Assembly: GCA_010093815.1 (NCBI GenBank)
Contig: ML996581.1
Reading direction: 5' to 3' (one strand)
DNA: 64,000 nt
DNA from: Pseudovirgaria hyperparasitica
Taxonomy: Eukaryota
The position numbers and the translations under genes are program-made. Below, in pieces: positions 1,780 to 28,700 of the stretch (positions are counted from its first letter, which is position 1; the number at the start of each line of letters is the position of its first letter). The notes beneath the pieces are model-generated. The model ran no database searches. It saw only the letters and a program-made list of their open reading frames with translations, and was not told the DNA's origin.

Positions 1780-4215
1780 TACCTCGAGATGCTACGGGCC
1801 GTAGTCTCCTACTAATACTATAGTAGAAAGATTAGTAGTATATACTATATAATCCGTAGGTACTATAACTTAGAACTGTATAGACGAGTACGGCTTACTA
1901 TATTACTATTATTATTATAACTATTAGGCCCGTAGCTACTACTATTAACTAGGTTATAGTACGGCTTTAGTACTTATAGTTATATTAGTTAATAGAACTC
2001 TTTAGTTCGCTCTATTAGTATTTAGCCGTTAAGTATTAATTAGAAGTCTAAGTCTATAGAATTAGATATATCTACTACTAATACGGCTCTATATAAAGAT
2101 ACTACTATATTCTCTAATTCTATTTTAGACCTAGAATCTATAGATAGTATTACTAGTAGCTATAGTACCGATCTAGTATATTAGTCTAATATATATAGTA
2201 GAAATACTATATCTATAGTAATAAGGGCGTCTAGTACTATATATTTAATAAAAACGTTTGAAGAAGAGAGTAGTATATATATTATAGTAGACTAGAGTAG
2301 ACGTGATAATCCGTCTAATATAAGTATATATAGTCTAGATTTATAGTAGTAACTAATTTAGTAGGCCCGATTTAGTTAATTTAATAGTAAGTTTATAGAG
2401 CGCCTTATAATATAGATAAATTAGTTTAGTATTTCGAATATAGTATATAATAAATTAACTACTATCCTTAAATAGACTTCTACTATACCCTCTAACCTTT
2501 TTATACTAAAATCTAATATTATATATAAGTAGTTATTATACTACTCTAAAGGGATACTATACGAAAGTTAGTAGTATAGCTATAATATATCTAGTACTAC
2601 TATAGTTCAATACTAGTATAGAGATCCGCTTACGTTAGTAGAATTCCTTCTTAGATACTAACCGTTTACTAATAAGCTCGTGTTTAAGCTAGTACGATAA
2701 TTTACTAGTTTAGGCGACTAGGTATATAGTAAAGTCTATATAGTAGATAGTTAGTAGGATATATATACTACTATTCCGGATGGTACCGTTATCGTCTCTA
2801 TTATTTTATCTTTAGATAAGATAAACCTTACTAACTATAGTAGTAATAGAGTAGTATAGCTAGTCTATCTATCTATTTATAATCTACTACTAAACGTCCA
2901 CTTATCTAGGAGTCTACTATTATTTCTACTACTTACTCTATTACTAGTAGTTAAGCTAGAAATAATAGTAAATTACTTTATATTCTATTAGATTATAAGT
3001 AAAGTTCTAGCCTATATATCCGCCTATAATAGAGTTATTAACTATACTAATTATTATATAGCGTTATAGGCTATATAGAGTACTAGAGTATTAGTATTAT
3101 ATACTAATAGCGGCTTACGTAAGTACTATCCGCGTTTAGCTTTATATATTATAGATTTTCCGGAGTAGATACTTATCATAGGTATATCCCATTAGTATAT
3201 ATATCTAATATATATAGTCCCTAGTAATAGACGATAGTATCTATAAGAAGCCATTACTAGTATATAGAAGTTCTATATATACTCGTTATTATAGAAATAG
3301 ATTTACTATATATATCGCGAGTTAATAACTAATAGCTATAGTAGCAAGTATACTAGTAGTAAGATAGATAATAGAATAAGTATACCTAGTATCTTATTAT
3401 TTTCGTTAATGTCTTTCGCGCTAGTAGTATAGGGCTATTATATTCGCTAATTAGTTAAGAGTCGGTATTCTAGTAGATAGATAGAGCCATTAGATAATTT
3501 TACCTAGTTACTTACTAGAGTTAATATATACCGCGTGGTCGCTCCGGACATTCTATATTAACTATATAAGGGTATATTAGAATACACGTTTAATTAGATA
3601 GTCTTATATATTATTAATTAAGAGCGTACGGGATATAGATTAAAGGGTATATTTACTAGTATACCCCCTATAGAACGAGTAAAGAAGGTAATTAATAAGC
3701 GATTCGCGTCTATTAGGGTATTCGGTCGTTATAACCTACTTATATATATAACTTTAGTAATATAATAGACGGGGGCGATATTTAAGTATATACTAGTAGT
3801 GTTTATAGTTACGTTTAAACCGCTCCTATATTATAATCGATACTTTCTAAGCGTAGTACGGGCGGTTATTAATATATATATATTAGTAGTATACTATATA
3901 TATAATACGTAGATACTAGTATACTTAGAAGAGACTATATTACGCTTAGATAATCTAAAATACTAGTTTATACTATATCATAGAGATAAATCGAAGGATA
4001 ATTATTTTAACTTTCCGAAGTTCTATATATTATCGTACCTAGTTAATACTATTAAATACTATAGTTCGTTATATCTAATATTAGTAGAGCTACTAGAGTA
4101 ATCTTATATTATAGTAAAGAAATTATATTAAGGTTTAAATAAGAGGGAGACGTTTCTATAGTAGATACTAGTAGTAGATATACGCACGATAAATACTAAA
4201 ATCTCTAGTAGTATA
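1780..4215 (+). pseudogene. Plavaka-family transposase relic, segment 1 (start approximate)
   Basis: De-RIPed motifs IPDGTVIVPIILSSDKTNLTNHSGDRVAWPVYLSI (~2773-2880), DFPEQ (~3154), APDILHQLHKGV (~3541-3576) and NFNFPKFH (~4003-4026) match my recollection of the Plavaka transposase consensus. Many TAA/TAG stops. Confidence 0.75.
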
Positions 4216-7200
4216 ATAAGAATAATAATATTATATAACTAGATAGAGTAGTTTACTCTATAGGCGTATACCTTCTCTAGTCTAAGCTATTATATAAGAA
4301 GAAACCTTTATATAAGGAAAAACTCCCTTTTCTCTATAATTATATCTTATAAAACCTTTATATTATCTTAAGTATATAGCCGTTAGGTATACCTATAGGC
4401 CTATAATCTATAGTACCGTTATTTTACCCTTAGGTAGCATATATAGAGTACGGGGGTTATTAGTTAAGGGTTACCCTTAACTAATAATTAGGGTTCTCCC
4501 GGGGTTCTTCCGGCGTATACTAGAGTCTATCTAGTATATATCTAGTTACTTCTAGTATGTATATCTAGGTCTATTAGTATTAGGGGAGAGGGAGATATAT
4601 AAGTATCTACTAGGTAATCTTCTTAGAGTACTTATTAAGCTACTATATAATATTAGAGGTCCTTATTATATAGATAAGTAATTATCTCAATATATAAAGG
4701 TCCGGGTATATTATAAGATAGTACTATATTATATCTCTCTAGCCGTATACTTTATACTATAGAGACGTATCTAGAACGCCCCTCTAGTATAGGTAGTATA
4801 GAAGTTCTATAGCTTCTATTCGAGCTTAGAGAAGGATAGATACTTAGGCTTTTATAAGCCCCTTATATATCTATCTACTTAGCTCCTTCTATAATCTCTA
4901 AATCTATTCTAAATATCTATTCTATTAGAATGTCTAATAGGTCCGGAGGACTTCCTTCTATTTATTCTAGGTCTATAACTATATAGCCTATATAAGCTTC
5001 TAAGGGTTCTACTAGTCTAGAGAGGCGTCTAGGTTATCCCCGATCTCTTATATAATTTAGTTTAAGTCTATCTCTATTAGACTCTTATACTATAGTTAAT
5101 TCTAGCCTATATATAGTAGTACTTAATAGTAGGTACTAACTCATGTATATAGCGCGGTAAAGGTATATTCAGCGTATTCTACGCGTTTCTATACTTATTA
5201 TTTAGTAAAGTATATTACCCTCTATATCTAGTAGAAGTTATATATACTTATTATATTTATCTTGCGCTATAGTAGTACTATATTAGTAGTCTTATATATA
5301 CTAGAAATAGGACGGAGTATACGGTTCTATATAGACTTAAGCTTTATTTATCTAGTCTATATAAGAACTATATACTAGTACTTATGTCCGTACGTAAAGG
5401 CGGGTCGTACTATAGAGATATATAGTTAGCGTGTCTTATTCTAGGCGGTTCCCTATATAGAGGCCGTAATCTAGTATATAGCGGCTTCTACCTTAAGGGC
5501 CCTAGATACTATATATATAATCTATAGGCTCTATTTAAGTTTATTATTAATTATAATACCGAGTATATATATACTCTATATCGGTAGTTTAGTAAAAGTA
5601 TCTATTCTAGAACGTCGCTCTCCTTTCTTAGTAGCCTATTTTCTATAGTAGTTAATAAAGTATATAAGTTAGTATTTCTTAGAGGTGAACTTTACTCTAT
5701 AGCGCTTTACCTACTAGATATATCTCTTATAGTCTTATTTAAGGCGTTTATATATTAAACTAGTATTATTATTAATAGCTAGAAGGTATATATTATTAGC
5801 GTATCCTACTACCTCTATATATTATATTCTCTATAGAAGGTCTATAGTAAAGAAGAGAAAGAGAATTAGGGAGATAGTACTTTCTTATAGAATACTATAT
5901 ATTATCTTCTTATATTTACTTTAATATCTAGAGATATATATCTAGGTAATTCTTTCGGTAAGGAAGGACTATATAAACCTTATAATCTATTTAGGTATAC
6001 GTCTCTTCCGTAGGTTATAGATAAGTCTTATATAGTTTATCTTATTAAATACGCCGGCTATATTAAGGGAGAGTAATATTACTACGCGTCTCTATTTCTA
6101 TATAGTCTAGATAACTTTAAGGATATATTAGATAGCGGTAATTAGAGAGCTCCTAGTTTTTACCTTCTAATTCGCTAGAAGAAGGTTATATTCTTATACT
6201 ATAGTACTTATCTTCTTCGTAATTATAGTCTTAAGTATCTTACTAAGATAGAAGAGAAGAGTAATTAGTCTCTATCCTTTTAGGGAGTTAGAGTTCTTCC
6301 CTAGTTTTAGAAGTATAATAGTATAGACGGCCTAGAAGCTTTAGGGGTAGTATCTATTCTTAGTATATATCTAGAAGATAAGGCTAATAAGTAGTAGGGT
6401 TATCTATATAGTATATTTAAGGTATCTATTTAGTATTCTATCCGGTCCGGACGCTTTATTATTTAGAAGTACTCTAATAGTATTAAGAATCTTCTCTTCT
6501 ATAATCTCTATAGGGATATTAACCGTGTCTAGATATATATTATTATTAATATCTAATAGATCTACTAGCTCTAGGAGGGGAAATATAACTTCTTAGAGGA
6601 TCTCTATCTTTTTGGGGCTCGTGGTATATATTCTCCCCTAGTATATTAGGGAAGATATTAGTAGTAGTAGCGTCTACACGTCCGCGCTCTTAGCCTACTT
6701 TACTATATACTATAGCTCTATAGCCTATTATATATATTTATTAGTAATTATATACTAGTATTTACGTCATTTATTACGGAGGGTCTTATCTTAAGATTAG
6801 ATTACCTCTTTCTATTCCTTCTATATCTTAGTTATCTAGATATAGTATACACGTATATATAGTCTCCGGGCTACCCTTCTACTTTTATATATTTAAGGTA
6901 TACCCCTTACGTCTAGGGGCTTATATATTTAGTATAGTACGTGTTTATTTCTTAAGTTTTAGAAGGCTTAAAGAAGGACTTATATAGCTCTATCTATAGC
7001 CGGACTATTAGAGACATCGACTATAGAGGGGTCTAGAATTATTAATTCTAGGTCCTTTCTATACTTCTCCTAGTTAGTATCTTTCTATAGCTATCTCCCC
7101 TATTATTCGTTAGACGTAGATATATCTATTACGGTCTCTATATATTCGTAATTAGAGTCCGTTTACGTCTTACTAGGGCGGTAGTATTATACTCTATAGC

Positions 7201-9540
7201 TTATATATTCCGTGGTAAAGGTAAGGTCGAGTATAGATCCCTCCTTATCTTCCTTATATTTCCTCTATATAATTTATCCGACTAGCGTAAGGAGGTATAG
7301 AAGGTTATAGTACCTTATATATAGCTCCCTTACTCTAAGCTCTTCTCTAATAACTATCGGGCCTCTCTACTATCTATAGTAGAGGTTAAAGTTACCTAGA
7401 AGGATATATTATCCTAGTTCCGTGATGCCCTCTAGTATAGTATCTAGCGTAAGTAATCCTCTCTAGTTATAGATATTATAGATATAGAGGGGCCCTATAT
7501 CTATCTAGAGGTATAGTATTATCTAGAGATTATCTTATTCTATATAGAACTATTCTAAGAGCGGGATAGATTTATATATATAGAAGAGGACTCTCCTATC
7601 TAGGCCTAGGGGGTAGATAGTATAGTATTCTAGGTGTGTCGTTAGTTTATTAGTTTAGTAGTATTTATAAGGTTTCTAAATAGCTATTATTACGGTATCT
7701 ATCTCTTCTAGAAGCGTAGCCTGGTTTTCTTATTTATATTATATATTCGCCTATATAATAATAAGTATATCTTAACTCCTTATTAGGTGCTAGGGAATAC
7801 ATAAGTCTATATACTAGTAGTATTAAGGCGCGACTATCTCTATACGGTAGCTACCTTAAGGATACCCTAGGGTTATTCTATCTTTCTCTATATAGTATAC
7901 TATTATATATTAGTCTCTTCTCCTTATAGATTAGTTAGTATAGTTATAGATAAGGTTAGCGTAGATAGTAGGGGCCTCGTGGCTTAGTATATCTACCTCG
8001 CCCCTCTTACCTTTATAGCGTTAATATACTTAGTAACTTATCTATATTTTATATATATTACTAACTATAATAGGTAGTTTCTATTATAATTAGAGTACTT
8101 AGTAGTATCTTTATTACGTGTATAGTTCTCCTATTCTTTATATAGGTATTTCTAGATATAGTAGTTCTATTAGTACTATCCGTAGGTAGCTTTCTAAGAG
8201 TACCTCTATCTAGTATATCTATATCTCTAATAGTTAAAGTATTAGGTTATTATCTATACTCTATTCTATAGTTCCGCTATAAGTAACTCTCTCTTAGCTA
8301 AGAAGCCTTCTTATATAATCTAATAGACGAGAGTAGAGTCTTAGAGCTCTATTATTATAGTAGAGTATTTTTTTAATTTTACTTTAATCCCTTATATATT
8401 CTTCTACTATACCTTTATAATCTTAATCCCGGGGTATTTTCGGTTATTAGATTATTCTATTTACTTAATATTATTAGCGCTAATAATATATCCCTAGATA
8501 GGAACTATATATATCTATATTAGGTACGTGTTAGCGCGGACGGACGTACTAGAAAAGATATTATTAATCGCGTTCGGGTTATAGGAGATAGTCTACTAGG
8601 CTATATTAGTAGTAGTAGTTAGTACTATATCTCCTAGGGTAAGTTTAGCTATAACCATATTTAACTATATTTCTTTTTATTTATTAATCTTATTAATAAT
8701 ATTCTTTAGAGATACCTTCTAGATCTATATAAGGACTTCCTTATCCTAGATAATAATCCGTATACTATATACTTCTTCTATAGATATTCTTAGTATTTAG
8801 GTTATTCTAGTTATACTACCTAATGGTACCGCGACTTATACCTAAGTAGTTAGGCGTCTCTCCTAGGTAAGGCCTTCTTAGATTCTTAGTAGACTAGTCT
8901 TAATTTAGTCTAGCCTAGACTCCGGACTCGTTTCCGGTATCTATTTTACTTCTATAGTAAGCCTCTTAATATTCTAGACTAGACTTCGGAAGATATTAAG
9001 GAGGGTAGTCTCTTCTTTCTTAATCTCTCTCTCTATACGTGCTACCTAGTATTTAATCTTATCTATAAGGGTATCCGCAAGCGGAGTTCTCTCTATCTTA
9101 GTTATCTATAGTACTTTGCGCCTCTAGTTATTTTTTATTTTTTAGATAGTAGTTTAGTCATTCTAGAATATACCGCTATATAGCTATTTCTATTATACTA
9201 GTAGTAGGGGTATACCTAGCGGAAGTCGGGGTATATTAGTACCGGAAACTACTATAATTATTAGTTAAGGGCTACTCTTAACTAATAAAGGGGGTTAGTA
9301 TATTAGTATTTATTAGTAGTAGTCTATACTTATTACTCTAAAGAGTTTTTAAGTATATATATATAGTATCTCTATATATCGGTACTATCGCGTATTATAT
9401 ACTATATGTATATATATATATTGGAAGTTATTATACTTGGTATACTCTATTAATTAGTATCTATAGATCGCTATATCGCCCCGAATTAACTAGTTCTAGT
9501 CCCTTTAAGATTTATATATATAATAAAGATTATATCTATT
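4216..9540 (-). mobile_element. Full-length LINE (Tad1-like non-LTR retrotransposon), copy A
   Basis: Reverse complement aligns end to end with the + strand LINEs. (TAT)n-like tail at ~4216-4232. 15 bp TSD ATCTCTAGTAGTATA at 4201-4215 and 9541-9555. Confidence 0.93.
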
Positions 9541-10174
9541 ATCTCTAGTAGTATAGAGGTAGTAGCTAGTACTAGTATATTAGTAGCCTCTAGCCTAGAG
9601 TAGCTTAATAATATATATAAGCTAGTTAGCTAGCGGTATATTCTAAAGGAGCTATACTAGAGTAAATATATACTCTACGTCTTATAGAGCTATAGACTAT
9701 CTACGTTCTACTAGACTACTATTAGTAACCTCTATAATGTATATAGTAGTAGTTTTATATTACTTAATACGGTTATACCTTTTATATATAACTATTATAA
9801 TCGGCTTATCGGGGATAATATATCGAAAGATATAAATATTAAATATATTAAAAAGGATCCTTCGTGGGTATAGGTCCTTTCTATCTATATATATAAGACT
9901 ATATATATACTAATACGACTAGATAGAGATATATCTATAGAGGCCTTCGACCTAATTTAGGTAAGGTATACCTATAACTAGTAAAAGAGTAGTAAGGCTA
10001 GAGAGAATTATATAATAGTATAGGAGTTTAACGAGGGTAGTAACTACCTTAATAGAAAGCGGGTTAGTAAAGTCTATATATTTCTAGAGGTATACGATAT
10101 AGAGAGTATTAATATAACTAGTAGTATAGCGGCGCGATTTCTAGGTACATTAGTTAAACTACTTAATAACTTAG
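9541..10174 (+). pseudogene. Plavaka-like transposase relic, segment 2
   Basis: Resumes at the LINE TSD. Coding-like frame reads (de-RIPed) VRCTYNWQKSGKAREDYIMV...LNGKRVGKVHIF, resembling the Plavaka C-terminal region. Confidence 0.55.
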
Positions 10175-10414
10175 TATAAGGATTATAGACGTAGGATAGT
10201 AGTCTAACAGATTATAGAAGGATTCGGGAATATATTTAAAAGGGTAGTCTACTCTTCTAACGAGGTTAATTTCTAAAGAGTAGGAATTAAGTATATACGG
10301 CCTACTTATATAGTAGTCTCGCTTATTCTAGCTAGCTTACCCTAGGTCCACCTATTACGGACCGTACTAGACTATAGTATTCTAGTTAAGTCTATCCTAG
10401 TATTAGCCCTAATA
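10175..10414 (-). repeat. Gypsy 3' LTR
   Basis: Differs from 18552-18791 only by C/T and G/A transitions as far as I can see; adjacent to the PPT. Confidence 0.95.
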
Positions 10415-10901
10415 ATATTCTTCTTCTTTTTATGCTTCGCCCTAAAGTACTTAGCTATATATAAATCCGTAATTCTATAAGCGTTATATTTATATACGCA
10501 TCTAATTAAATCTATATAATATTATTAATAGTCTTTATATTAGTAAACTTAAGCTCTAGTTTACTTTTATTTATACACGCGCTTATCCCTTACTTTATAG
10601 CTACTACCTTAAAGGTAGCTCCGCGGGTTATATGACCGCTATATTAACTAAGCTTATATTTAGTTCTCTTATTCTGAATTTTCTTCTCTAGTATATCCAC
10701 CTTACTCTTAAGGTAAGTCGTTAATTCGTATACTATCTCCTTTAGTTTAGATCTATTCGGGTCTAGAGTAGTCTATTTTCGTTAGAGCTAGTTCTATATA
10801 ATCTATTCGCGTTATTACGGTTACTAATTTAGCTTCTTTAATTACCTTTAAGGCTAAACGAGTATTCTACTCTTAGATCTCTAGCTAACGTATATATATA
10901 G

Positions 10902-12207
10902 ATATCTAATACTAGTCCTATTTCTAAGCCTACCTCCTTCTCTCGTAAGACTCGCTCTAAAGAGATTACCTCTACCCCGGCTATACTAGCTAAAAAATCT
11001 ACTTATTATAGTAGTATAAAGGCGCGCTCTAAGTTAGAGAAGAAGATAGCTAAGGCTACTACTACTATTACTACTAACGTAGCTACTAGTCGCTCTAATC
11101 TAGGTAATCCTAGTACTAGTGTTACGGAAGAGGTAGCTATAAAGCCTACCTACACCTACTCGCGCCGTCTATCTACTCTACCTTCTTTAGAGGATAAAGA
11201 AGATCTCGTCGTAGATAATAATCGAGAGTTTATACCTTCGCCGCCTTACTCTAAATACTATTCCTCTTTTCAGTCTAATATAGACCGACTTAGTCGCTCT
11301 AGATTCTTTTAGGACCTTAATATTTACTCTAAACCTAGCCCTAGTAATAATAAGGCCTAGGTCGCCGAAGATACTAAACGTAGTTACGGTTTACGCTATA
11401 GAAAAACGGCGAACTATAGTTTAATATACTTTAAGTATATTAAGGCTTATACTACCGGCTCTAAATATCTCTTCCGCTCTAACTCTAGTATTAGCTACTA
11501 CTCTACTAACCGCGACGGGCCTATATATCTAATCTTTAAGCTCTCTACCCGCTACCGCCGCTATACCGTCCTTAGTAAAGTTTATCTTTAGGTAAGTCTA
11601 TTAGGCTATTTTAGTCTAGAGTAATCTAAAGTTATCCATGCTAATACGTTTTTAGGTTTCTATTTATATATAAGATATATATAACGATCTTCGCGTCCAT
11701 GAGACTCTTAGTAGTTCTAGTAGTTATCTAGCTTCTATACGTAGGGAGTTTAGAGAGCGCTATAAGCTCTTTCTAGAGGTTATTAAAGTATAAGTTTAGA
11801 AACCGTTAATTATTATTAACCTTAGCTTATAATTTTCAGTCGCCGCGAGATTCCTAGCGCTTAGGCTATCTATTCTAGGGAGTTGGTTTTAGCTACTAAG
11901 GCCGTAGAAGAGATTCGTGCTATTCCTTCTTATCCGCCTTATACTACTAACGGGTCTTATAAGAGATCTACTAGTTCTCCTTCTAAGTTACCTCGTAAGA
12001 GGGTATATATTCTATTCTAGATTATTCTAGACCGCGTTAGCTAACTTTAGGTCTAGTCGCTCTACTCTAGCGCTTAGTTATTATCTTACTAGGCTCTAAC
12101 TAAGCGCGTGGTTACTCTAGAGGATAAGGTCTCTAACCTCCGTTACTCTATTACTCGGTTAGTTCGTTTACTACGCTCTAAGAGTAATAATAAGATAGAG
12201 GAGTAGC
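10902..12207 (+). pseudogene. Spliced antisense gene inside the Gypsy element (Ser/Thr/Pro-rich N-terminus, Cys-rich domain, C-terminal heptad segment)
   Basis: Continuous coding-like frame. Introns at 10713-10901 (GTAAGT..GCTAAC..TAG, upstream of the inferred ATG), 11592-11655 (GTAAGT..GCTAAT..TAG) and probably 11788-11839 (..TTTCAG). De-RIPed CFKC...TRCRRCTVLGKVC at ~11427-11590. Confidence 0.65.
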
Positions 12208-12457
12208 TCTATGGCTCTATTTACTAGGGTTTCTATATGGTATGTGTTGGCTCTATCTACCTGGTTTCTATCCGTTTTAGTCCTTTTTAGACCGTTTAGA
12301 TACCTATCTACTAGTTTTCTAGTAATTTAATTCTTAACTTAATAATATTATATACGTTCTTATTTATTCTATAACTATTAAATTTTAGGTTCTAATTTCC
12401 TTTAAGTTACTTAAGTATAGGCATCGTATATAAATTAGTTTATCTCTCTAAATTATA

Positions 12458-12557
12458 TTAGAGTACCCGAACCAGTGGCCTAGTAGTTATTAGTTCGGGT
12501 ACTCTAACCTTTTATATTATATGTCACGAGTTTAATTCCGTAGTAGGGTACCTTTTT
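12458..12557 (+). ncRNA. Putative Pol III (tRNA-type promoter) hairpin RNA unit within the Gypsy 3' region
   Basis: TATATAAA at 12427. 17 bp inverted arms at 12458-12474 and 12491-12507 enclose an A-box-like TGGCCTAGT(A/G)G. B-box-like GAGTTTAATTCC (de-RIP GAGTTCRATTCC) at 12528-12539. T5 at 12553-12557. Confidence 0.5.
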
Positions 12558-15500
12558 AGTTTCTTAGTCCTATGTTCTTCTCATATATAATAGTCTATAT
12601 TAGTCTATTCTAGACTTCTCTATATTATTCTATTATAATATATTACGTCGTATGCCTATAACGATTATTTACGTTTTCTTCGCGTTTAGTAACCGTGTAT
12701 CGCTTGAATTATAGGGCTATCTTATAGAGTTTTCCTAGTGTACGTTTAGAATTCGTGATTTAATACTTCGTTCTCTATAGTATCCTTCTTCTTTTTATAA
12801 CGGCCCTAATAGTACTAGGTTTACGGTAGTAATATGTTATTCTATAACCTCTATTTATATATAGCTATCGCGGTACTTAAGATATGTACCGTAGGTTTCT
12901 AGGTGTTCTTATCCTTAGTATAGTTCTTCTAACGAATTTAATACTTTTAGATACCGTTCTCGTTAAGCCTATGTTCGATAATATAGTCTACTTTATATAC
13001 GTCTAGTCTATCTTAGAGTATAATAGAGTGTAATTACACGTTCGTGCGTTTATATATATTAGGTCGAAACCTTTTAAGTAATAAGACGTAGAATATGTTA
13101 TGGACTTTTATATTATTTTCTAGGTTAAGCTTATAGACTCTTATACTAATACGACGTTTAATTCGGAAGGGACTAGCTATTTTATAATCGAGCTTTTTAT
13201 TTACTCGCGATGTTTATATATTACGGACGTTAAGAAGGACTTTATCTCTCTCCTTATACGCTTAATCTTTAACTAATCTATTATAGTACTTTATATACGA
13301 CTTATTCACTTACTAGATTATTACGCGATAGTTACGTGCGGTTTTAAAGATTTTAATTGCTAGTTCCTACGCGTGGACGTTAACATCTATCGTTCGGTTA
13401 AACTAGACCGTATAAGGTTCGAAACCTATCCTTAGACTATATTCTAGGTTCGCCTAGAAGGGCGTAATACCTATTATACTATAACGACTATTATTATATA
13501 TGAATTCTACTATACTTAGTAGAGAGGCCTAGTCGTCTTATTTGAAATTATAGAATGCACGAAGGTAGGCCTCGAGTATTTAGTTCTATCGCTCTATCTA
13601 ACTATCTATTTATAGATAGAATGCTATTAATATGTTTCTATTTATACCGGCTATTTTATAGAATAACGTCTAGAATTTAGACGTGAATATACTCCCTCGG
13701 TCTATAACGATCCTTTTTAGTATACTATAGACCTTAATAATCTTATTCTAGAATACTTATACTAGTTCTTTTAATGTGATTATCTTCTACATAGGGACGT
13801 ACCTAGATATCTTTATAAGTCTATCCACGATAATAAGAATTAAATTATAACTCATTCTAAGTATCTTACTTAGAGGTAAGTTAACTATAAAATCTATAGT
13901 AATATCTTCCTATATAAAGAGGGGGACTAGTAGAGACTATAAGTTCCTATATAGCTTATGCCTAGGTGCCTTTATTCTTTAATAAATTAGATAAGTAGCT
14001 ATCTATTCTTCGATATACTTAGGTATATCTTCCTAAAATTAGTACTAATAAATTAAGCTTAGGGTGCGTATATACCCGAAATGTTCTACTAGGTTAGCGT
14101 TATAGTATCGGCTAACTATAGTAAATCGTACGTTATCTATTAGTATATAGTACTTTCTATTATAGTAGAGTAAGCCATCCACGAAGGTCTACTTATAGTC
14201 TACTTCGGTCCGTAATAACCTATCTTACTATATTTTACGTAACTTTAAAACTATCGGGTCTATCTTTTATAGATCCACGATTAACTAGGCGAGGTCTACT
14301 TAATATACACGCCGGGTACTATCGCCCTCCCTAATAGCGCCGATAAATGGCTCGCTAGAGACTTCGGTACCGTGTCTTTAGTTACCGGCTTTAGTCTTAT
14401 AAATTTAATTACCAGCATCAGCGTTAGCATCTCGCTAATCGTCGGATAACTTATTATCTAACCTCGTCCTTAAGAGTTAGGCCTATAGCTACTCTAGGAC
14501 CCTATAGCTACTATAATCCTAGGCGCCTTCTTTATAGTTAGGTCTTCTTAATATTCTATTAGCTAGGTTTATACTTCTAGATCGATGGTAGATTATAAAG
14601 TAGAAATTTATAAGCTACTTAGCCTATCGAACCTATTAACGATTTAAAACTATTATACTTATAAACCCCTTTAAGTTATAGTAATTAGTTAGTAACTTAA
14701 TATTATATATAGTACCTTTAAGATAATATCGCTACTACTTAAACGACTCTACTATTACTAGTAGCTCTTGGTTATAAATAGTATATCTAGTCTTAACGTT
14801 AGCTATCTTACGCAAGAAGAACGTAACTAGATACTATTAGACCTTTTTAGACTCTATTAGTCTAGGCTAGGAGAGTATACCCGAGATTATAAATTCTAAT
14901 ATATTAGTTTCGACGTAAATAGGTTTAGTTAGATCGAAGTACACTAGTAATAGAGCGGTTATAAATGCTTCTTTAATCTTCTTAAAGGATATTCTTTTAA
15001 CCTTAGTTAATTTAATAGATTATAATTTAATATTATACTATTTCTATCTACCACGGACCGTAATAGATAAGTCGGTAGTAGTAGTATATATATTAAGTAG
15101 TGCGGCTAAATAGGAGAAGTATTTAATAAATTTTTAGTAGTAGTTAGCGAAGCTAATAAAGACACGTATATCTTAAACGGATTTTAGTTTAGGCTAGTCT
15201 ATAATAGTAGTAACTCTATCTCTCTCTATGGTTATACCTTAATTAGTAATAATAAAGCTAAGAAAGTTAATATAGTTCTAATGGAACTTATATTTAGATA
15301 GCTTAATATATAGCTTATACTTTTCTAGCCTATCTAGGACTATATATACGTGCTAGATATACTCCTCCTCGTTATCTAAGAAGATAAGGATGTTATCTAG
15401 GTACACGATATATATCGTATTAAGTAGGCCTACTAGTACGTTATTAATATACGCTTAGAAGGTGCCTAGTACGTTAGTTAGTCTAAAAGGAACTATAGTA

Positions 15501-15846
15501 TACTTAAAGTATCTATAACGGGTCCTAAAAGCCGTTTTCTATTCGTCGCCTTCCTTAATATAAAGGCGATAGTAGACGTTACGTAGATCGAGCTTAGTAA
15601 AGATCTTTACGCGTTCTAGTCTATTAATAGACTCGGAGATAAAAGGTAGTAGATAATAATTCTTTCGCGTAATATTATTTAGACTATAGTAGTTAATATA
15701 TAGACGGAGGCTCCTATCCTTCTTCTTTATAAAGAGAATTAGAGCTCCGGCTAGAGATATACTAGGCCTAATCTATTCTCGCGTAAGGTTCTTTTTAATA
15801 TATTCTCGAAGGGCTTATAACTTAGATTCTAAAAGAGGGTAGATAG

Positions 15847-16447
15847 TGTTAGGCACGTAAGGAGCACGTGGCCTGCCAGTTAATTATACATGTGTGTAGT
15901 AGTCGTATATAAGTAGTATACTCCACCCTTAAAGTAGTAGCTTCAAGATTCGGTCCTTTTAGTATAGTTGGTTAGTGTGTGGAGCCCGCCTCCTTATATA
16001 ATCTTAAAGCTACTACGGGGTCACGGGTTCAACTCTCGGTCTAGTCAACCGTTATTAAATTTCGCACGATTCCGTTTAGCTTGCCACGTTACGTGTCCTT
16101 TAAGCACGTGACGGATAACATGGTAGTAACATTACTATGGTAAGTTAGTGTGTCTGGTGCTAGAGGCGGTATTACGAGTATTGGTTATGTGTGTACATGG
16201 TTTATACTAGGCCCGTTACGGCTAGTTTAGTTTATCTTTCGTAAGGTAGTATACCCACGACGTGTAAGGATACGCGCCTTTGAAAAGGGGGATAATATTA
16301 GGCACGTGAGGAGCACGTGGCCTACTAGTTAATTATACATGTATGTAGTAGTTGTATATAAGTAGTGTACTCCACCCTTAAAGTAGTAGCTTCAAGATTC
16401 GGTCCTTTTGGTGTAGTTGGTTAGTGCGTGGAGCCCGCCTCCTTATA
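15847..16447 (+). mobile_element. TRIM (601 bp non-autonomous LTR element), copy 1, inserted in Gypsy pol
   Basis: 152 bp LTRs at 15847-15998 and 16296-16447, starting TG. PPT GAAAAGGGGGATAA at 16282-16295. 5 bp TSD GATAG at 15842-15846 and 16448-16452. No ORF. Confidence 0.95.
15960..16036 (+). promoter_or_regulatory. tRNA-type Pol III internal promoter of the TRIM: A box in LTR U5, B box in internal region
   Basis: A box TGGTGTAGTTGG (intact in the 3' LTR at 16409-16420, RIPed at 15960-15971). B box GGTTCAACTC at 16026-16035. Upstream TATATAAG at ~15906. Confidence 0.65.
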
Positions 16448-18551
16448 GATAGGTTCATATAGAGGTTACTAGCCGTCTTCGAGATTAATAGTAAGGTTAG
16501 TAGATTAGTATTAAGGTAGTTTAGAGGAATCGATCGCTAACACGATATATTAGTATATTTTATACTAATATAGTAGGTTTTCGTCTACTTTAATACTAAG
16601 CTCGCTATTTTACGTGAGTAAGAGTATATAGATAGTAGAGATCGCCTTCTTATAATCCTTCTAGAATTATTTATTCTCGATAAGCTATACTAGTTTCTAT
16701 TAAGGTAGGTTTATACGCTAGCTAGCTATCTTCTTAAGGAAGTCTAGTTTTAGGTTATATTTCTTAAGCTATAGTATACCTAGAATTATATTAAAGGGAC
16801 TATCTACCACGATAAAGGTTAAGTAGTAGAGTTTCTATTTCCCTCCGCTATCCTAGATACCGTATTTAATAGTATAGATACTATATAACTTAATAGAACC
16901 GTCGATACTATGGAACATAGCACCTATTAGAGCTTAGATATCGGCGTTAAGTTCTCGTGCTCGTTAGGTTAATATAACGTTAGTAGCCGACCTACTATTA
17001 AGTATTATAGTTTAATATTATCTACGAGGGACCTTAATAGGTCTAGTCTATAGTTTAATATACTATTTAGCGGATTACCCCTCTATTATAGTCGCGTCTA
17101 TAAGTCGCGAGGGTTTCTCGTAGACTATTAGTTTTTTATATTCTATACTAGGTAGTTAGGCGCGATATGTTCTAGCTACTAGCACTTATAGTATATAACT
17201 AGTTAGTTAGTTATATTAGTACTTAGTAGCTTCCCTAAACGGTACTTAGATACTATATAGTCTATTCTACTATAGGTATAGTAAGTAACTTTAGGTCGTT
17301 TATACGAGTCGGTCCTTATATCTTAATATATTAATTAGTAGGGAGATCCACGATACGATCCGCGTGGTTTTAAATTTAAGGCGTGGTAGTAGCCTTATAA
17401 CGTCCCGCGAGATCTATTACTAAATCGGTTTTAGTTAGATAATTTTACGTTAGATTAGATTATTAGGGATAGTTATACACTAGCGCGGTGTTAATTATTT
17501 ATTATATACTAGTATCGCTCCGCGAGGTTTATAAGAGCTTAGAGGTCTATAGAGATTATCGTTATAAGGTTAAAACGGTCCTTTATATTTAGGGTAAGAG
17601 ACCGTTTAAAGTCGTTATACTATCGAATTATATAATCTTCTTCGGCTTCTCTCTAGAGGGGCCGAAGGTATTTAAGGAGTTATAACGGTAACTAATTATC
17701 TCGTTATCGAGTCTTAAAGATATGGCCCTAGGCCTAGTTACGTTGTTTAGCTCTATCGCTAAAATATTAGAGGAGAAATTCGGTAAACATGTCCTAGTTA
17801 TAGGCATCCTTAGAATATTCGATTTAGTATACTATCTAACGTTCTAAAGGCGTCGGGTTAAGGTAGTTCTAGGCGAATCTAATTTTATTACTATCGTTCG
17901 TAAATAGATAGAAGAATCGGCTATATTAGTAAGCCTATACGTGGAAACTCTTTCTACTTTTACTATTAAAGTAAGGTGGTTTCTTAGGTCGGGGTAATTA
18001 GGATAGTAGTAGACTAGAATGGATCGTTTTAGTTGGTATAGGTCTATATAAATATAGATTAGTCGTTGCTAGAACTAAAGCGTATAATATAGCTTTAAGT
18101 CTCGTAGTACGTCCTTAAGCTTTATTAAGTTTACGTAGTTATTACTCGAGTTAAACCTATCGTTACCTCTCTTTATATAGTCTAGTATATACGTCGTTAT
18201 AAGGTGTAGTTAATATTAGGCGATTCTAACGGATTAACTCATTAACGTTAATAAGGTCTAGCCTTATATTAAGGTTAGGTCTAGTATAGTTTAAACTAGA
18301 CCGAGATAGAGTATAATAGACTCTATCCTCGTATTCTATAATATCTTCTATAGTTATACGGAATATTATACGAGTTATTAGTACGATAGTCTATAAGGTA
18401 TAATTATCGGTAGGGGTAGTTATAGGTAGACTATTCTTCTTATTTAGGTTAGGAGAAGGTCTACTATAAGAGGCGGTACCACGAGTATTATAATAAGTGG
18501 TTAGAGCCGTTTCTATGAACTACTATCGTGCTATATAAAGAGAAATTAAAA

Positions 18552-18791
18552 TATAAGGATTATAGACGTAGGATAGTAGTCTAATAGATCATAGGAGGAT
18601 TCGGGAATATATTTAAAAGGGTAGTCTACTCTTCTAACGAGGTTAATTTCTAAAGAGTAGGAATTAAGTGTGTGCGGCCTACTTATATAGTAGTCTCGCT
18701 TATTCTAGCTAGCTTACCCTAGGTCCACCTGTTACGGACCGTACTAGACCATAGTATTCTAGTTAAGTCTATCCTAGTATCAGCCCTAACA
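18552..18791 (-). repeat. Gypsy 5' LTR
   Basis: Ends ...TAACA at 18791 (TG on minus strand) and is followed by the TSD. Confidence 0.95.
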
Positions 18792-19050
18792 CTTAGATAG
18801 AGGTAATATTAATACTATTAGTAGCCTTATACTATTATATATAGCGGGTTAAAGGTCTAGTAATAAGACTTATATAATAGATAGGTTCCGTGTCTATAAG
18901 CTAGAGCATATCCTACGCCCTATATAGATTATATTATATTAGTTAGTTATAGATAGTTTATTCTAGTTAAATACGTATAGTAATTAGGGGATCTATAACG
19001 AGGTATATAATCTAGACTTCTAGGCTATAAATAGATAAAACGTAACTATA
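18792..19050 (+). pseudogene. Plavaka-like transposase relic, segment 3 (C-terminus; end approximate)
   Basis: Continues after the Gypsy TSD. Reads FRVYKLEHILRP.QI, similar to the family's C-terminal motif. Confidence 0.4.
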
Positions 19051-19925: not shown

Positions 19926-19997
19926 TTAATAATAGTACTAATTAATAATAACCTATTATAGAGATAATAGGTTATTATTAATTAGTACTATTATTAA
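19926..19997. repeat. Perfect 72 bp hairpin (34 bp arms, 4 nt loop)
   Basis: TTAATAATAGTACTAATTAATAATAACCTATTAT-AGAG-exact reverse complement. Confidence 0.95.
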
Positions 19998-22400: not shown

Positions 22401-22917
22401 CTATCTAGAAGAGATAGTTACTATAGAATTTAGAAGATAGACTTAGTATCTATAGTGTTAGTATGTCGGACGGCTAAACTTTTATATAATACTATTTACT
22501 TATATCTATATTTATCTAAGCCCCGATTTAATAGCCTTCTATAATATACTATATACTTAGTCGGCGAGCTACTAGACTTATATAATAGTAGTATACTACT
22601 CTACTTTATATACTACTTAAGCTACTATTACTTTAGCCTACGTTAATCTTAGCTTCCTTTAGTTATCTCTATATTATAAAAGAAAACTTCTATAAACCTT
22701 TTCTCTACTTATCTTGGTTTTTAAATCTAAATCTTACCTTCTATACTTTATTCTATATTAATTATAACTATATATAAACGCTACGTCGAACTCGACTCTA
22801 TTAACCCTTAAGGTCCATTCTATATAATAGTTAATAAGATTATATTTATAGTTTATAATATAGATTAAGAACTCGTTATATTTAGTAATATTTAGGACTA
22901 GTCTATACTTAACGTAA

Positions 22918-23143
22918 TTAAGCCTTACGTTTAAGCCGATCCTTATATTTAAGTCGAGTCTTACGTTTAAGTTAAGCCTTACGCTTAAGCTAATCCTTAT
23001 ATTTAAGCCGAGCCTTATATTTAAGCCAAGCCTTATGTTTAAGTCGAGTCTTACGCTTAAGCTAATTCTTATATTTAAGCCGAGCCTTACGTTTAAGCCG
23101 ATCCTTATATTTAAGCTAAGCCTTATACTTAAGTCGAAGCTTA
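22918..23143. repeat. 18 bp tandem minisatellite, ~12 copies (TTAAGCCGAGCCTTACGT)
   Basis: Directly visible. The period is a multiple of 3, so it is probably a 6-aa coding repeat. Confidence 0.9.
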
Positions 23144-24267
23144 AAATATAACTACTATCTTAACTAATAATAAACCACTTATCTTTAGTATACTTACCGG
23201 TAACTACTATTCTAATAATAAGTATAAACTTAAGAAGGTCTAAAGTAGTAAGGCTCCTGTTTCTACTTACGCTATCTATTAGATCTCTCTTATATAGAGT
23301 AATCTATAGTTAATCTTTAGGAATGTCTATAGTATTAGTAGAGAAATAGATAGACTTAAGTAGAAATAAGTGAAAACTTAAGCTAAGCTTAAGCTAGTAG
23401 TATTTAAGGCTCGTGGTAAAGGTTATAGCTTTAAAGAGTCGATTAGTTATATATATAGATTCCTTAAATTCCCTAAGTACTACTCTTAGATTAAGTTATA
23501 TACTCGCTTCTAATAGATTAATAAAGGGAAATTAGTATCCTTAATAAGCTTACTCCGCTTTAATTATACTAATATCCTTCTATTATCCGACTACCCTACG
23601 GTATAGATCTTTAAGATTAAGTAAGTAGATAACTTTATTAAGTATTTTTCTAAACTTTCTAATCTTATTATAAGCGAAGTAGATAAAGCTAATATACTAT
23701 ATACTAATACCGGTCTCTATAAAGACCCTTATAACTTTTAGATTATTAAACTTATAGCTAGTAAGCTTCTTAGTATAGGTTTTACTATCCCGTTATATAT
23801 TAGATCTAATATAATATATAAATAAGTAAAGTAATTCTTTTAAGATCTAGATACTTATACTATAGTTTATATCTTACTACCGCTATGTAACTCTATAGAT
23901 CTTACTAGCTTTAATAATAAGCTTAAACTAGAGAGCGATCCGATTAATTTATAGTATATAGAAGTTACTACTCCCTATATATAATATAGTATAGAGAAAA
24001 AAAACTTCTTACACCCCAACGGACCAAACTAGTCAATTCGGGGTAAAACAGCGATTTACATATATTAAATAATAGAGTATACCGAGTATAATAACCTCCG
24101 ATACACGTGCGTACGTATAGCGTATAATACGCGACGATACCGACGTATAGAGACACTATATATATACGCTTAAAGACTCTTCGATAACACGAGTATAGAC
24201 TATATCTAATAAACGCCGACACGCCGACCCCCTTTTATTAGTTAAGGGCTACCCTTAACTAATAACC

Positions 24268-25719
24268 ATGGCGGCCTTAGGCATCGTAACACCCCGGTAT
24301 ACACCGGATATACCCCTACTAGTATAGTAGAAACGGCCATATAGCGATATTAATATAGATAGCTAGACACCTATCTAAAATATAGGAACTAACTAAGGGT
24401 ATAAAGCGCTATAGATAACCTAGACTAAGGGGACCCCGAGAGGGGAGACCCTCCTAGATAAAATTAAATACTAGGTAATACGTGTAGAGAGGGACGCTAA
24501 GGAGGGAAAGAAGACCCTTCTTTATATATTCCGGGACCTTATCTAGAACCTAAGAGAAATCACGGAGAAAGAAAGGAAGTCGCCACGAGAGGAACCTAGT
24601 AGTAGGCTTGACCGAATAGAAGCTAGCCTACGGAGAATCTAGGAAGAGCTATCCTAAGGTAAGCGCCCTAATACGTGGGCTTAGATTATAGTAACACCCG
24701 GAGCCACCGTACTAAGAACTACTAGAACTATAGATAGAGTATATAGTATACGTATCGTAATCTAGGATAAGAACACGCTAGCGTAGATCTAATAGGCATC
24801 CCTAAAGGAAATTATAAATAAGATTAATGAATAGAAAGGAATGTAGTTGAGCGTCGTGGCTACTAAAGTTACGCTAGGTAGGGTAGTACTTACTACTATA
24901 ACGAATACTACGTAGTAAAACATCTTATAAGATCCGAATATAATAGGTAGTATCTTCCCTAGCGCGTCTATTAGAGTAGCCATATACCCGATTATAGTAT
25001 ATATAGTATCCGTGCGGGGATAGGCTATCGGAGCGGAGAATATTACGCGTATAGAATAATCTAATACGCGAAAATACCTAGGGATTAAGATCGTGAAAGC
25101 GTGGTAGAAGAACCTATAGGCGATTAAGACGACGGTAAAAAAACACTCTACTATAATTATAGAGCTCCGAGACCCCGCCCTCGTATAACGCATTATATAG
25201 AAGGGATTCCTAATAGAAGGAGAGCTTCTTATAGCCGAGCTATAGAATAGGATATAGGTAATAATATAGTGCTTTAACTATTAAGGGTATAGATATACTA
25301 TATAAAGGTACTTATAGAAGACTAAGTGCGGATAGTACCGTAGGGACCATGCTACCTAGAAGTGCCCTTATGAACCGCGAGGAGACGGACCAAGAAATAG
25401 GGATATAGTATAGTATTTAAACTACGACGGGAAACACCCGTCGTGGTCGTTAACGTGTATAAAACGTAAATAGATTATAGAATATATTTATATAATAAAA
25501 GCGAGAGACGCGAGATAGTTATAGAATATAACACCTATTATAAGCCCTTCCTTTATAATATCCCTAATCTCCTCTCCGGAAGGTAGTTAGGTAGGATAGT
25601 AGACTATCCTAAAGACGATAGGACGACTAAAAGGTATAGTTAAAGCCGCTACCGCGTGAGGACAGTCGCGCCTCTAAGGAATAAGTATATAGGTATATAT
25701 ATTCTCTAGTATCTAATAA
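24268..25719 (+). pseudogene. LINE ORF1 (gag-like, CCHC knuckles)
   Basis: ATG at 24268; 484 codons in frame to a TAA that overlaps the ORF2 start; de-RIPed CFNCQGYGH (~25270). Confidence 0.85.
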
Positions 25720-28700
25720 GGGACTAGAATATACTCCGAATTATATAGGTAAACGTATAATATAAAAGAGAGAACTAGGCGACGCTCCTTAAAGAGACCG
25801 GGGCCATAATACTCGCCATCTAGGAACCCTATAAACACTACTAGACGAGTAAACCAACCACACACCCCGGATACCATACTATATACCCTCTAGGACTAGA
25901 AAGACGAGTCCTCTTCTACATTTATAGGTTAATACTACTCTTATTATAGTCGTATACTAAGCGCGATAACCTTAGGATAATACTACACCTATAAATAGAT
26001 ATAGGCCCTCTATATATATATAATATATATAACTAATAACGTGTACTTATACTAGACGAGATACTCGAGGGTACCACGGAACTAGGGTAATACATCCTCC
26101 TAGAAGACTTTAACCTCTACTACTAATAGTAGGGAGGCCTAGCCATGGTTAGGGAAGAACTTAGAGTAAGGGAACTACGTACCCGCTACTACGACTTCCT
26201 ATACCTACTTATACCTATAGAATAAGTTATATAGAAAAAACATAAATAGGATAAAGACGGGTCTATACTTAACCTTACCTTCGCCACGGAGTATATTAGT
26301 TACTAGATCTAATACTACCGCCTAGGCTAGGTATAGACGGATTCTAACCACGAATACATGGAAACCATAATAAACGTATATACCCCGAATGAATAACGGG
26401 GACGATAGATATAGAAGGATACTAACTAGGAAAAGTACCTAAAGGACCTGGAATCGGCGATCCTAGATCCCTCTATAGTTAATATATCTAACGACCTAGC
26501 TATAGACCAGGCCGTATAGATACTCCTATAAATATATTAGAATACGAGAAATAAACACGTACTATACTAAATATACCGGCCCCTAGAAGTAAAGGGGATT
26601 CCTTAAGTACGGGAAAGTAGATAAGACGCCTAAAGGCTATATACACGCGTATACCGTACGAGAACACCTAAGTCGTAGAAAGAATAGAAGGAAGTAATAT
26701 AATAATACGATAAAGTCCTCCGTAACGAAAGGCGTAAATAGTAGTATATAATTACTAGTTAATAGACACGATACGTAATAGGGCTATAGCGTATAGCGAA
26801 ATAGGCTAAGGGCGTAGACACTCCGACACCCCCGCTACTTATGCCTCCCCTAATATATTAGAGGAGAATATACTCTATAAGCCTTAAGAAAACTAAGGCC
26901 CTACGGGAGGCTATATTCCCTCTCCTAGAACTAGTAGACCTATTAGACGTTCACGGCGCTAAATATCTATACACGGTAGACATCCCCGAAGAAGTTACGG
27001 AGGAGGATATACTTAATATTATTAAGATACTCCTAAATGATAAAGCACCTAGACTAGATAGAATTCTAAATCGATACCTAAAAAGCACTATAAAAGCGAC
27101 CCTACCGCTTATTACTCGTATATTCTAAGCATACGTCACGTAGGGGTACCACCCCTAGAGCTTCCGAGTCGTCTATACTATTATACTCCTAAAACTAGGA
27201 AAGAGCCCTAACTCTCTAAAGGGATAGAGACTAATCGCCCTTCTCTCCTACCTAGGTAAGATACTAGAGGCTATGATAGCGAAGAAGATAAGTACCGCGG
27301 TATAGAAATATAATCTCCTCTCTCCGAACTAGAAGGTAAAGATAGATAGCTCCCTAATAATAGCTATCTAATATATTATTAAAGTCGTCTAGGCCGTATA
27401 GAAATAGGGACGGGTAGTATCGCTTCTCTCCCTCGATATGGCCGGAGCGTTTAATAAGGTAAACCATATAAGACTTATTTATAACCTCTAGATAAGACGA
27501 ATACTAGAATGGATTATACGCTTTATATAGTCATTCCTCATAGGAAGAATAACTTAGATATATATCCCTAGGTACTAGAGCGAATATAAAGAGACGGCAT
27601 ACGGCATCCCATAAGGGAGCACCATCTCTCTAATCCTATTCCTCTTCTTTATAGTAGATCTTCTTTAAGGAATAAAGTATATAGAGGTAGTCGGATACGC
27701 CGATAATATATACCTCCTAGCTATTAATAATAATACCAACCGAACGTATAGACGACTAGAATAGAACTATAAGAGGTGCCTCTAGTAGGTAAAACGCTAT
27801 AGAGTAAAGTTCGCCCTGGAGAAATACCAGCTCATGCACTTTATTAATCGTTAAGGGAAATAGGTAACTAGGGAAGGCGAATAACGCCCCCGAATCGACG
27901 CATTTAACGAACTACTAGTATAAAGTATACGCGCGCTTAGAGTCATACTAGATGGCAAGCTTAAATAGGGACCATAAGTAGCATACGCCGTCTCTAGGGC
28001 CCTCTAGGTAGAAGCCGCTATATAACGGATTATAGCCTCCACGTAGGGAACCGCCCGGGATAAGGCACGCTAGCTATATATATCTATGGCACGACCCGCC
28101 TTCACGTACGGATATAAGTGCTAGTATATAGCCCTTATATAGACTAGGCGAATAAAGCTCGAATCTATATAGAACCGTATACTCCGTCTTATATTAGGCG
28201 TATATAAAGCTACTAACACGGTGCTACTATAACGCGAGACAGACGTTATAAGTATATATAACTTCTACTAGATATAGAGGGTAGTATACTTTACTAAATA
28301 ATAAGCATAGGAACGCATAGGAAACGTAGAATATACTTTCGCCGCGCTACGTGCACGAATTAGCATATATTACCGCGTACTCCTATATATAGGCTAGAAT
28401 CGAATACGGTATAGGTGCTTAATAGAAGCCGACTCTAGCTAAGTAGTATAAGAAGTCCGAGATAACCCGGACGCTCTCCTAGACTAGTAGAGCCTTTAAG
28501 AACTTATGAAAAATATACGGTCGTGGACTTAAGATAAGTAGAAAGAGGCACTCTATGCCTACTAGACCTCCTAGTAGAATAGGTACCTAGAGTGGATTTA
28601 AGGGCTATAGAAGGAACCGAGTAAATAGATATATAAAGGGCTAACGAAAGCCTAAGTATCTATACTTATCTAAGCCCGAACGGGCGCCATGGGACTTCTA

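Follow-up and report, generated by a model that had tools for sequence, protein, structure and literature searches.

A TRIM-like hairpin unit inverted in the non-coding tail of a fungal chromovirus, possibly the orphan 5' module of a self-priming element

The DNA analysed here, 64,000 nucleotides of contig ML996581.1 (assembly GCA_010093815.1) from Pseudovirgaria hyperparasitica and hereafter called the window, consists of AT-rich repeats and has no long open frames. It contains a chromovirus of the Ty3/Gypsy type (the Gypsy element), a long terminal repeat (LTR) retrotransposon degraded by repeat-induced point mutation (RIP), and, within this element, a compact hairpin unit that is the subject of this study. 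A preliminary description of the sequence had placed the unit antisense in the Gypsy element, and this was borne out, because the LTRs and pol run on the minus strand around the unit, which lies between the LTRs. The pol region forms a single frame running from reverse transcriptase (RT) through RNase H and integrase to a C-terminal SH3/chromo region, interrupted by stop codons only, in which the domains RVT_1, RNase H and SH3_Tf2-1 were recognised; Pfam searches gave nothing in the gag region. The relatives of this pol are fungal-type chromoviruses with Chromo domains (35-44% identity), and its best solved relative is Ty3 Gag-Pol. The frame ends near 12850, and the working polypurine tract (PPT) and 3' LTR lie 2.4 kb beyond. 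The unit is found in the intervening non-coding tail, outside the Gypsy coding sequence. The window also holds two copies of a terminal-repeat retrotransposon in miniature (TRIM), each with two LTRs, a primer-binding site (PBS), a PPT and a target-site duplication (TSD). The coordinates of all these features are collected in Table 1.

Table 1. Positions of the hairpin unit, its host Gypsy element and the TRIM copies in the window
Feature	Position	Strand	Remarks
Unit: TATA box TATATAAA	12427-12434	+	31 nt upstream of arm 1
Unit: spacer, 23 nt	between TATATAAA and arm 1	+	contains a short pyrimidine run
Unit: arm 1 TTAGAGTACCCGAACCA	12458-12474	+	3' end CCA; read as self-primer, the predicted transcript 5' end
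Unit: loop GTGGCCTAGTAGTTAT, 16 nt	12475-12490	+	read, by analogy with the TRIM, as short U5 plus LTR end
Unit: A-box/D-loop-like TGGCCTAGTAG	12476-12486	+	inside the loop
Unit: arm 2 TAGTTCGGGTACTCTAA	12491-12507	+	read as putative PBS
Unit: spacer, 15 nt	between arm 2 and 16-mer	+	
Unit: 16-mer GTCACGAGTTTAATTC, T-arm/B-box-like	12523-12538	+	common to the TRIM leader
Unit: TTTTT	12553-12557	+	after a 14-nt spacer 3' of the 16-mer
Chromovirus (Ty3/Gypsy), RIP-degraded	10175-18791	-	LTR pair; TSD CTTAG
Gypsy LTRs, 240 nt	10175-10414 and 18552-18791		direct repeat, 96% identical; starts TGTTAGGG, ends CCTTATA
Gypsy working PPT	10418-10431	-	
Gypsy PBS TTAATTTCT, 9 nt	18541-18549	-	2 nt past the 5' LTR
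Region X, non-coding tail, 2.3 kb	10497-12776	-	holds the unit; between pol/PPT* and working PPT plus 3' LTR
PPT*, second polypurine tract AAAAAGAAGAAGGA	12783-12796	-	right after pol
TRIM copy 1, 601 bp	15847-16447	+	within Gypsy RT; TSD GATAG
TRIM copy 2	31943-32552	-	TSD AATAG; 17-18-bp arms, RIPed 16-mer

All parts of the unit that had been listed in the preliminary description (a TATA box, 17-bp arms, an A-box-like loop, the 16-mer and a TTTTT run) are present, with positions shifted by a base or two. As had also been reported there, the arms carry one RIP-type mismatch: 16 of the 17 positions are paired, and the exception, a C.A mismatch, is explained by a single G>A change in arm 2, the start of which would have been TGG before the change. 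The A box and B box of RNA polymerase III (Pol III) genes have the consensus motifs TRGCNNAGTGG and GGTTCRANNCC, respectively. The A-like box of the unit agrees with the former at 10 of 11 positions, the sole miss being a G>A transition, and its B-like box, contained in the 16-mer, fits the latter only when three transitions are allowed. For such comparisons ambiguity patterns, which are permissive, were used instead of a de-RIPed sequence. Arm 1 has no further copy within the window, even RIP-tolerantly, and a RIP-tolerant 29-nt pattern of arm 1 plus loop had no match in a metagenome scan. Relatives of the Gypsy element were collected as 77 metagenome loci (545 kb), in which the 16-mer was likewise without a match. 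A 40-nt likeness of 12512-12548 to 45434-45480 on the minus strand (score 71, null maximum 65) was considered and dropped.

Comparison with chance confirmed the reality of the hairpin unit. The window contains six hairpins that have 17-nt arms with no more than one mismatch and a loop of 3-70 nt, compared to a mean of 1.0 and a maximum of 4 in 20 matched simulations that kept the local composition, and none of the simulated hairpins had an arm GC content of 0.45 or more. They comprise the unit, one hairpin in each TRIM copy, an AT-only palindrome and a hairpin that is found twice in a 5.3-kb repeat. The RNA of 12458-12560 is predicted to fold with -32.4 kcal/mol (z = -3.9), which one of 200 shuffled sequences equalled. 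With R or Y at three transition sites, the 16-mer has three matches in the window, namely the unit and the two TRIM copies, compared to 0.03-0.08 expected. The flanking signals are less exacting when taken alone: a T5 run no more than 30 nt away has P ~0.04 for a random place in the Gypsy element, the plus strand of which carries 1.28 runs of T5 or longer per kb, and for a TATA box 24-39 nt upstream P is ~0.06, the DNA being AT-rich. Two words from the surroundings of the TATA boxes, the 10-mer TCGTATATAA common to both (5 occurrences, 2.8 expected) and the 11-mer TATATAAGTAG (60 versus 45 with one mismatch allowed), are not rare in the window.

The TRIM offers the closest parallel to the unit. 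Its LTRs are 152 nt long (TGTTAGG...CCTTATA), with the PPT GAAAAGGGGGATAA ahead of the 3' LTR, and the PPT and LTR boundaries make the strand of the element certain. Insertion of the TRIM into the Gypsy family is seen directly in copy 1, which interrupts RT. Its limits have independent support from contigs of two DNA runs of one sample, which were placed at 80% likeness on 10100-18900 and among which a joint 15839>16446 represents a Gypsy copy without the TRIM. A second joint, 10168>18791, represents a site in the same organism without the whole Gypsy element, so that the sequence in which the Gypsy element landed is itself repeated and also exists without the insertion. Since the LTR termini and the TSD length of the TRIM match those of the Gypsy element, mobilisation of the TRIM by the Gypsy element is suggested.

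In TRIM copy 1, arm 1 (15934-15950) lies inside the LTR, 28 nt after the TATA box TATATAAG, the 5' LTR ends at 15998, and arm 2 (16000-16016) starts 2 nt later, which is the PBS position. No arm 2 follows the 3' LTR, where the TSD stands instead. The TRIM arms pair at 16 of 17 positions, and a simple meaning of this hairpin would be that arm 2 is the PBS and arm 1 the start of the LTR transcript, as predicted from the distance to the TATA box. Such pairing of a PBS with the predicted 5' end of its own RNA is the signature of Tf1-type self-priming.

The preliminary description had recognised the same order of parts in the unit and in the TRIM head, and this agreement extends to the strand logic, the distance between TATA box and arm (31 nt in the unit, 28 nt in the TRIM) and the place of the 16-mer, the TRIM-leader version of which is GTCACGGGTTCAACTC; it is for these reasons that the unit is read as a TRIM-type module. 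At these distances past the TATA box, both accordingly have a predicted RNA start in the LTR (putative in the unit) to which a candidate PBS is complementary. A PBS that directly follows the 5' LTR and is missing behind the 3' LTR was seen in the TRIM, the unit having no findable LTR pair. The arm sequences are unrelated, again in agreement with the earlier observation, and differ on both sides at 11 of the 17 pairs with the pairing kept, as expected of co-evolving primer/PBS pairs.

Taken together, these data lead us to favour, at roughly even chances, the explanation that the unit is the orphan 5' module (promoter, self-primer and PBS) of a small TRIM-type self-priming element, carried as an inverted passenger in the chromovirus tail. 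In the corresponding mechanism, the LTR TATA box would set the RNA start ~30 nt downstream, at arm 1, which would be followed by a short R-U5 corresponding to the loop, and arm 2, just beyond the LTR end, would serve as the PBS. The 5' end of the RNA would fold back onto this PBS, and an RNase H cut would yield the primer for minus-strand DNA, as in Tf1-type elements. The conserved 16-mer would be part of the leader, and the D-loop-like and T-arm-like motifs would be tRNA-derived or tRNA-mimicking parts of the module rather than marks of a tRNA-like gene. By this analogy an LTR boundary would once have lain in the loop of the unit, which presumably arrived by nested insertion or capture and would now be a passenger without a role of its own.

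Self-priming is known from Tf1, Tf2 and Tj1, and the Tf1/sushi group and the plant Tcn1 clade have been predicted to use it (PMC4600332, PMC6317226). The clade of the host Gypsy element is predicted to self-prime as well, as judged from its pol domains, its relatives and the 9-nt complement of its own PBS. This PBS pairs with the LTR segment AGAAATTAA (~18643-18651), 38 nt after the LTR TATA box, with a shuffle P of 0.017. A direct-repeat pair is present in 29 of the 77 loci of relatives, and 17 of these 29 were inspected. In six of the 17, 8-9 nt of the leader are complementary to the LTR, typically directly behind a pyrimidine tract. In a strict set, confined to internal pairs starting with TG, three of six loci pass at P <=0.04 and three show nothing. 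A 12-nt complement is present at locus L031 (1732-1822), where the layout is ...ACA, T, PBS. As a separate observation, junction complements giving PBSs of 8-12 nt, directly behind a pyrimidine tract, were noted at L031, L059, L060, L065, L053, L069 and L033.

The tail that carries the unit was then compared with the rest of the host element. Pfam recognised no family in the six frames of region X, which is framed by two 85-nt copies (12777-12861 and 10412-10496; 75% identity, PPT included) of the last part of the Gypsy internal region. From the pol match to the 3' LTR, eight relatives with full LTR pairs measure 60-860 nt, as worked out by hand from the locus tables, compared to 2.4 kb here. 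A long, non-coding tail framed by copies of the pol end and PPT fits acquired passenger DNA, and it may have been captured by read-through or template switching. The two DNA runs gave 25,235 and 9,562 contigs on 10100-18900, with 30 of 30 bins covered, and the two bins holding the unit have summed depths of 166,430 and 148,200 (X1), within the range of the pol bins. Differences in X1 amount to 141-175 places per transition type versus 2-6 per transversion type, and this near-exclusive occurrence of transitions is in keeping with RIP. Both ends of the tail (10407-10595 and 12708-12862) are spanned by diverged contigs, and none of the joints listed skips it. As both junctions are bridged and the depth is pol-like, the tail is a trait of the Gypsy family. 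This holds for the tail, the hairpin itself having been read in one copy: none of the 40 differences listed (724 more exist) falls within 12426-12557, and none of the contig pieces listed lies over the hairpin. The preliminary description had made its proposal depend on the presence of the unit in other members of the family; diverged copies do share the region at pol-like depth, a result that concerns the tail as a whole. A 136-codon open frame rich in S, T and K (10902-11312, plus strand) also lies inside the tail, antisense to the Gypsy element. It was rejected as a gene, having no Met and low complexity, and is probably a compositional effect.

The retention of the tail and its junctions in diverged copies, at pol-like depth, would also be compatible with the unit being a functional part of the Gypsy element, either as an antisense Pol II promoter with a hairpin (giving a regulatory antisense RNA or a Dicer substrate) or as a DNA hairpin of the minus-strand cDNA with an influence on plus-strand synthesis, close to the additional PPT. 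In favour of this, the fold of the hairpin is thermodynamically strong, and the second PPT lies 225-290 nt from the unit. Nothing, however, shows selection: each arm has one RIP-prone dinucleotide, of which one of the two is already mutated, so that the intact pairing needs no selection. In addition, eight hairpins with 15-bp arms were found in the loci of the relatives, none of them between the pol match and the 3' LTR. We regard a function of this kind as improbable.

Several points weigh against the interpretation of the unit as an orphan self-priming module. No second LTR, TSD or PPT was found for it, and RIP-tolerant alignments of 12200-12560 with the window, the neighbourhood and the Gypsy 5' end did not score above shuffles; with no LTR partner, the LTR boundary in the loop is an analogy only. 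The R-U5 of the unit would be 32-33 nt long, compared to 65 nt in the TRIM, 100 nt in the Gypsy element and 74-362 nt in the relatives. Apart from the short motifs, no sequence of the unit region can be aligned with the TRIM, and a RIP-tolerant local alignment of the TRIM with the tail was not above shuffles. The arm pair is symmetric (...CCA / TGG...), so that the strand of the unit is indicated only by the T run, the 16-mer and the spacing of the TATA box, and the unit was read from a single copy. Furthermore, a strict A-box plus B-box pair hits TRIM copy 1 once (15960/16026), compared to none in 200 simulated windows, and this pair is unmatched in the 545 kb of relatives, where no strict pair occurs. 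The A-like motif recurs in the TRIM 3' LTRs (16409 in copy 1), without a B-like box there, and the T5 run of the unit stands at a tRNA-gene-like distance from its B-like box. The strict pair of TRIM copy 1 and the T5 run of the unit are in keeping with a Pol III reading and find no explanation in self-priming alone.

A Pol III reading had been put forward in the preliminary description, in which it was suggested that the unit may be an antisense Pol III gene for a ~95-nt RNA that could serve the Gypsy element as an RNAi decoy or a TFIIIC insulator, or that the TRIM promoter arose from such a cassette. Its geometry fits a type-2 promoter, with the A-like box 18 nt past the predicted start and the B-like box 53 nt past the A-like box, and an oligo-T run of the terminator kind follows the 16-mer after 14 nt. 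All mismatches to the box consensuses are G>A or C>T transitions, the strict box pair of TRIM copy 1 is beyond chance, and the whole unit region is kept in many copies. An upstream TATA box, such as that of the unit, occurs in fission-yeast Pol III genes. Moreover, TRIMs of the Helenus group, some of them fungal and with 5-bp TSDs, are described as having tRNA-derived LTR sequences and a proposed Pol III promoter (PMC10886601).

The tests for a tRNA-like fold were negative. ARAGORN found no tRNA gene in the window and none in 27 of the 77 loci of relatives, and Rfam gave no match at gathering score. With Rfam E values of up to 10, no tRNA was found in 12380-12620, where three miRNA-hairpin matches (E 1.1-6.7) were the only ones, or in the TRIM (15840-16460). 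A search of the Infernal/tRNAscan type had been recommended for a de-RIPed sequence; ARAGORN and Rfam were run on the sequence as it stands, with the outcome just given, and RIP damage lowers the power of such tests for the unit, less so for the TRIM. A ~95-nt tRNA-like Pol III RNA thus found no support in these tests. The fold itself speaks against it, as the A-like box lies in the loop of a 17-bp hairpin, which any cloverleaf forbids. The boxes of the unit do not rise above chance as Pol III boxes either: they pass the RIP-tolerant test only, in which the window has three A-box plus B-box pairs compared to 1.38 in simulations, and 19% of the simulations reach three.

In the TRIM, moreover, the LTR end falls between the two boxes, arm 2 stands at the PBS position, and a T4 run separates arm 1 from the A-like box in the LTR. 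Most other TRIM copies, as seen in contigs, have T at 16030, where the B box has an invariant C, but this site belongs to a CpA, the preferred RIP target, so that the T there does not decide the Pol III question. Of the preliminary interpretation as a whole, the likeness to the TRIM head and the antisense position in the Gypsy element stand, the Pol III RNA has no support from these tests, and we consider a working Pol III gene unlikely. Rather unlikely, too, is a family of self-priming TRIMs with a tRNA-derived Pol III promoter that the LTR/PBS boundary divides between U5 (box A) and the leader (box B), the autonomous chromovirus partner of which would carry an inverted, terminator-capped copy.

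The same motifs could be accounted for by a tRNA pseudogene or the head of a tRNA-derived short interspersed nuclear element (SINE) that landed in the tail or was captured with it, a later inverted duplication having made the hairpin. The D-loop-like and T-arm-like motifs, the T5 run at a tRNA-gene-like distance and the arm ending in CCA would agree with this origin, and insertion of SINEs into LTRs is the proposed origin of Helenus and Cassandra (PMC10886601). Against it, there is no cloverleaf, no other copy of a matching SINE was found in the window, and the same layout at the LTR/PBS junction of the TRIM would have to be a coincidence. We therefore think such a fossil very unlikely.

The symmetry of the arms also allows the locus to be read along the minus strand. 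In that case an internal LTR of a composite or tandem element would follow PPT* and end in ...GGCCA, and after a C the canonical PBS TGGTTCGGGTACTCTAA (12474 down to 12458) would prime a non-autonomous partner, the body of which would be the rest of the tail. Consistent with this, PPT* is followed by TATAGAG, which resembles the LTR starts TATTAGG/TGTTAGG, the arm opens with TGG directly past CA plus 1 nt, and the AT skew of the tail is that of the Gypsy sense strand. The TATA-like run of the minus strand, however, ends 0-2 nt ahead of the primer arm, so that the RNA start cannot be at the arm, and the two features in common with the TRIM, the 16-mer and the distance from the TATA box, agree with the plus strand only. 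The candidate LTR end at 12245 was rejected, as it has no self-complementary leader, and the similarity of LTR-A to the tail (best score 51, null maximum 47) was judged not above shuffles. The probability that we give to a minus-strand element is small.

Compared with known systems, the favoured reading of the unit as a self-priming module resembles Tf1-type elements, in which the PBS, 0-3 nt past the 5' LTR, is complementary to the beginning of the transcript of the element itself, below the LTR TATA box (PMC4600332 and PMC6317226); the host here is a chromodomain Ty3/Gypsy element, with relatives of the same layout. It differs in that the unit arms are 17 nt long, compared to 8-12 nt in the inspected relatives, with an R-U5 of 32-33 nt, and in that the unit has no demonstrable LTR boundary and is inverted inside another element, the RNase H cut and priming being predictions.

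The TRIM, for its part, is like Helenus/TRIMp3 and the 5S-derived Cassandra a short non-autonomous LTR element, here in a fungus, with a PBS, a PPT and a 5-bp TSD, and like Helenus it has box-A-like and box-B-like motifs near the transcript start. In Helenus both boxes are inside the LTR, whereas the B-like box of the TRIM (16026) lies beyond the LTR end at 15998, so that a tRNA-derived sequence with both boxes in the LTR was not found in the TRIM. The fungal Helenus families look Copia-dependent, with tRNA or anticodon-loop PBSs, whereas the TRIM termini (TGTTAGG...CCTTATA) and TSD match the Gypsy element. In addition, no complementarity of the tRNA-like part to the PBS was found in Helenus, unlike the TRIM PBS, which pairs with its own LTR (all Helenus features from PMC10886601). 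Finally, tRNA finders see nothing in the TRIM.

With tRNA genes and SINE heads (type-2 Pol III), the unit shares the order of A-like box, B-like box and T run, and it differs from them in having no cloverleaf, an A-like box enclosed by a 17-bp stem and no ARAGORN or Rfam match. Adenovirus VA RNA, to which the preliminary description had appealed, is similar in idea only, as a structured Pol III RNA of ~100-160 nt encoded by a mobile or viral genome; the unit matches no Rfam family at gathering score, and the host context differs.

Other repeats were noted in the window. A 5.3-kb repeat family has at least five copies or part-copies (4213-9505 on the minus strand; 24018-29280; 41077-46330; 50534-64000 on the plus strand), which differ in RIP decay (GC content of 0.29 to 0.42) and include a conserved 17-bp hairpin at 46060-46098 and 60444-60482; Pfam gave no match on one piece of this repeat. 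There are tandem arrays of 11 copies of an 18-bp unit at 22902-23189 and of five copies of a ~232-bp unit at 36035-37266. At 19926-19997 a perfect AT-rich palindrome of 34 bp encloses a loop of 4 nt, and ten N at 55536-55545 mark an assembly gap inside a repeat array. Among the relatives, locus L023 (807-925) has a ~48-bp palindrome with perfect arms, resembling a foldback element or miniature inverted-repeat transposable element, upstream of pol.

Were the unit a working Pol III gene, it would be the first antisense small-RNA gene for Pol III to belong to an autonomous LTR retrotransposon, and it would offer a directly testable route by which TRIMs acquire Pol III promoters. Under a split promoter, too, the autonomous element would encode its own antisense Pol III hairpin RNA, with the unit as the donor or sibling of the TRIM head. 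If the unit is instead the orphan 5' module that we favour, the locus would for the most part be an ordinary fossil of nested retroelements in RIP-ridden repeats. It would nevertheless record a self-priming TRIM that is linked to a Gypsy element, contains tRNA-like motifs and has primer/PBS arms of unusual length (17 nt), and that would sit between two described kinds of element, the Tf1-type self-priming retrotransposons and the Helenus-type TRIMs. The locus would also exemplify the amplification of passenger DNA, together with an autonomous element, to a very high copy number.

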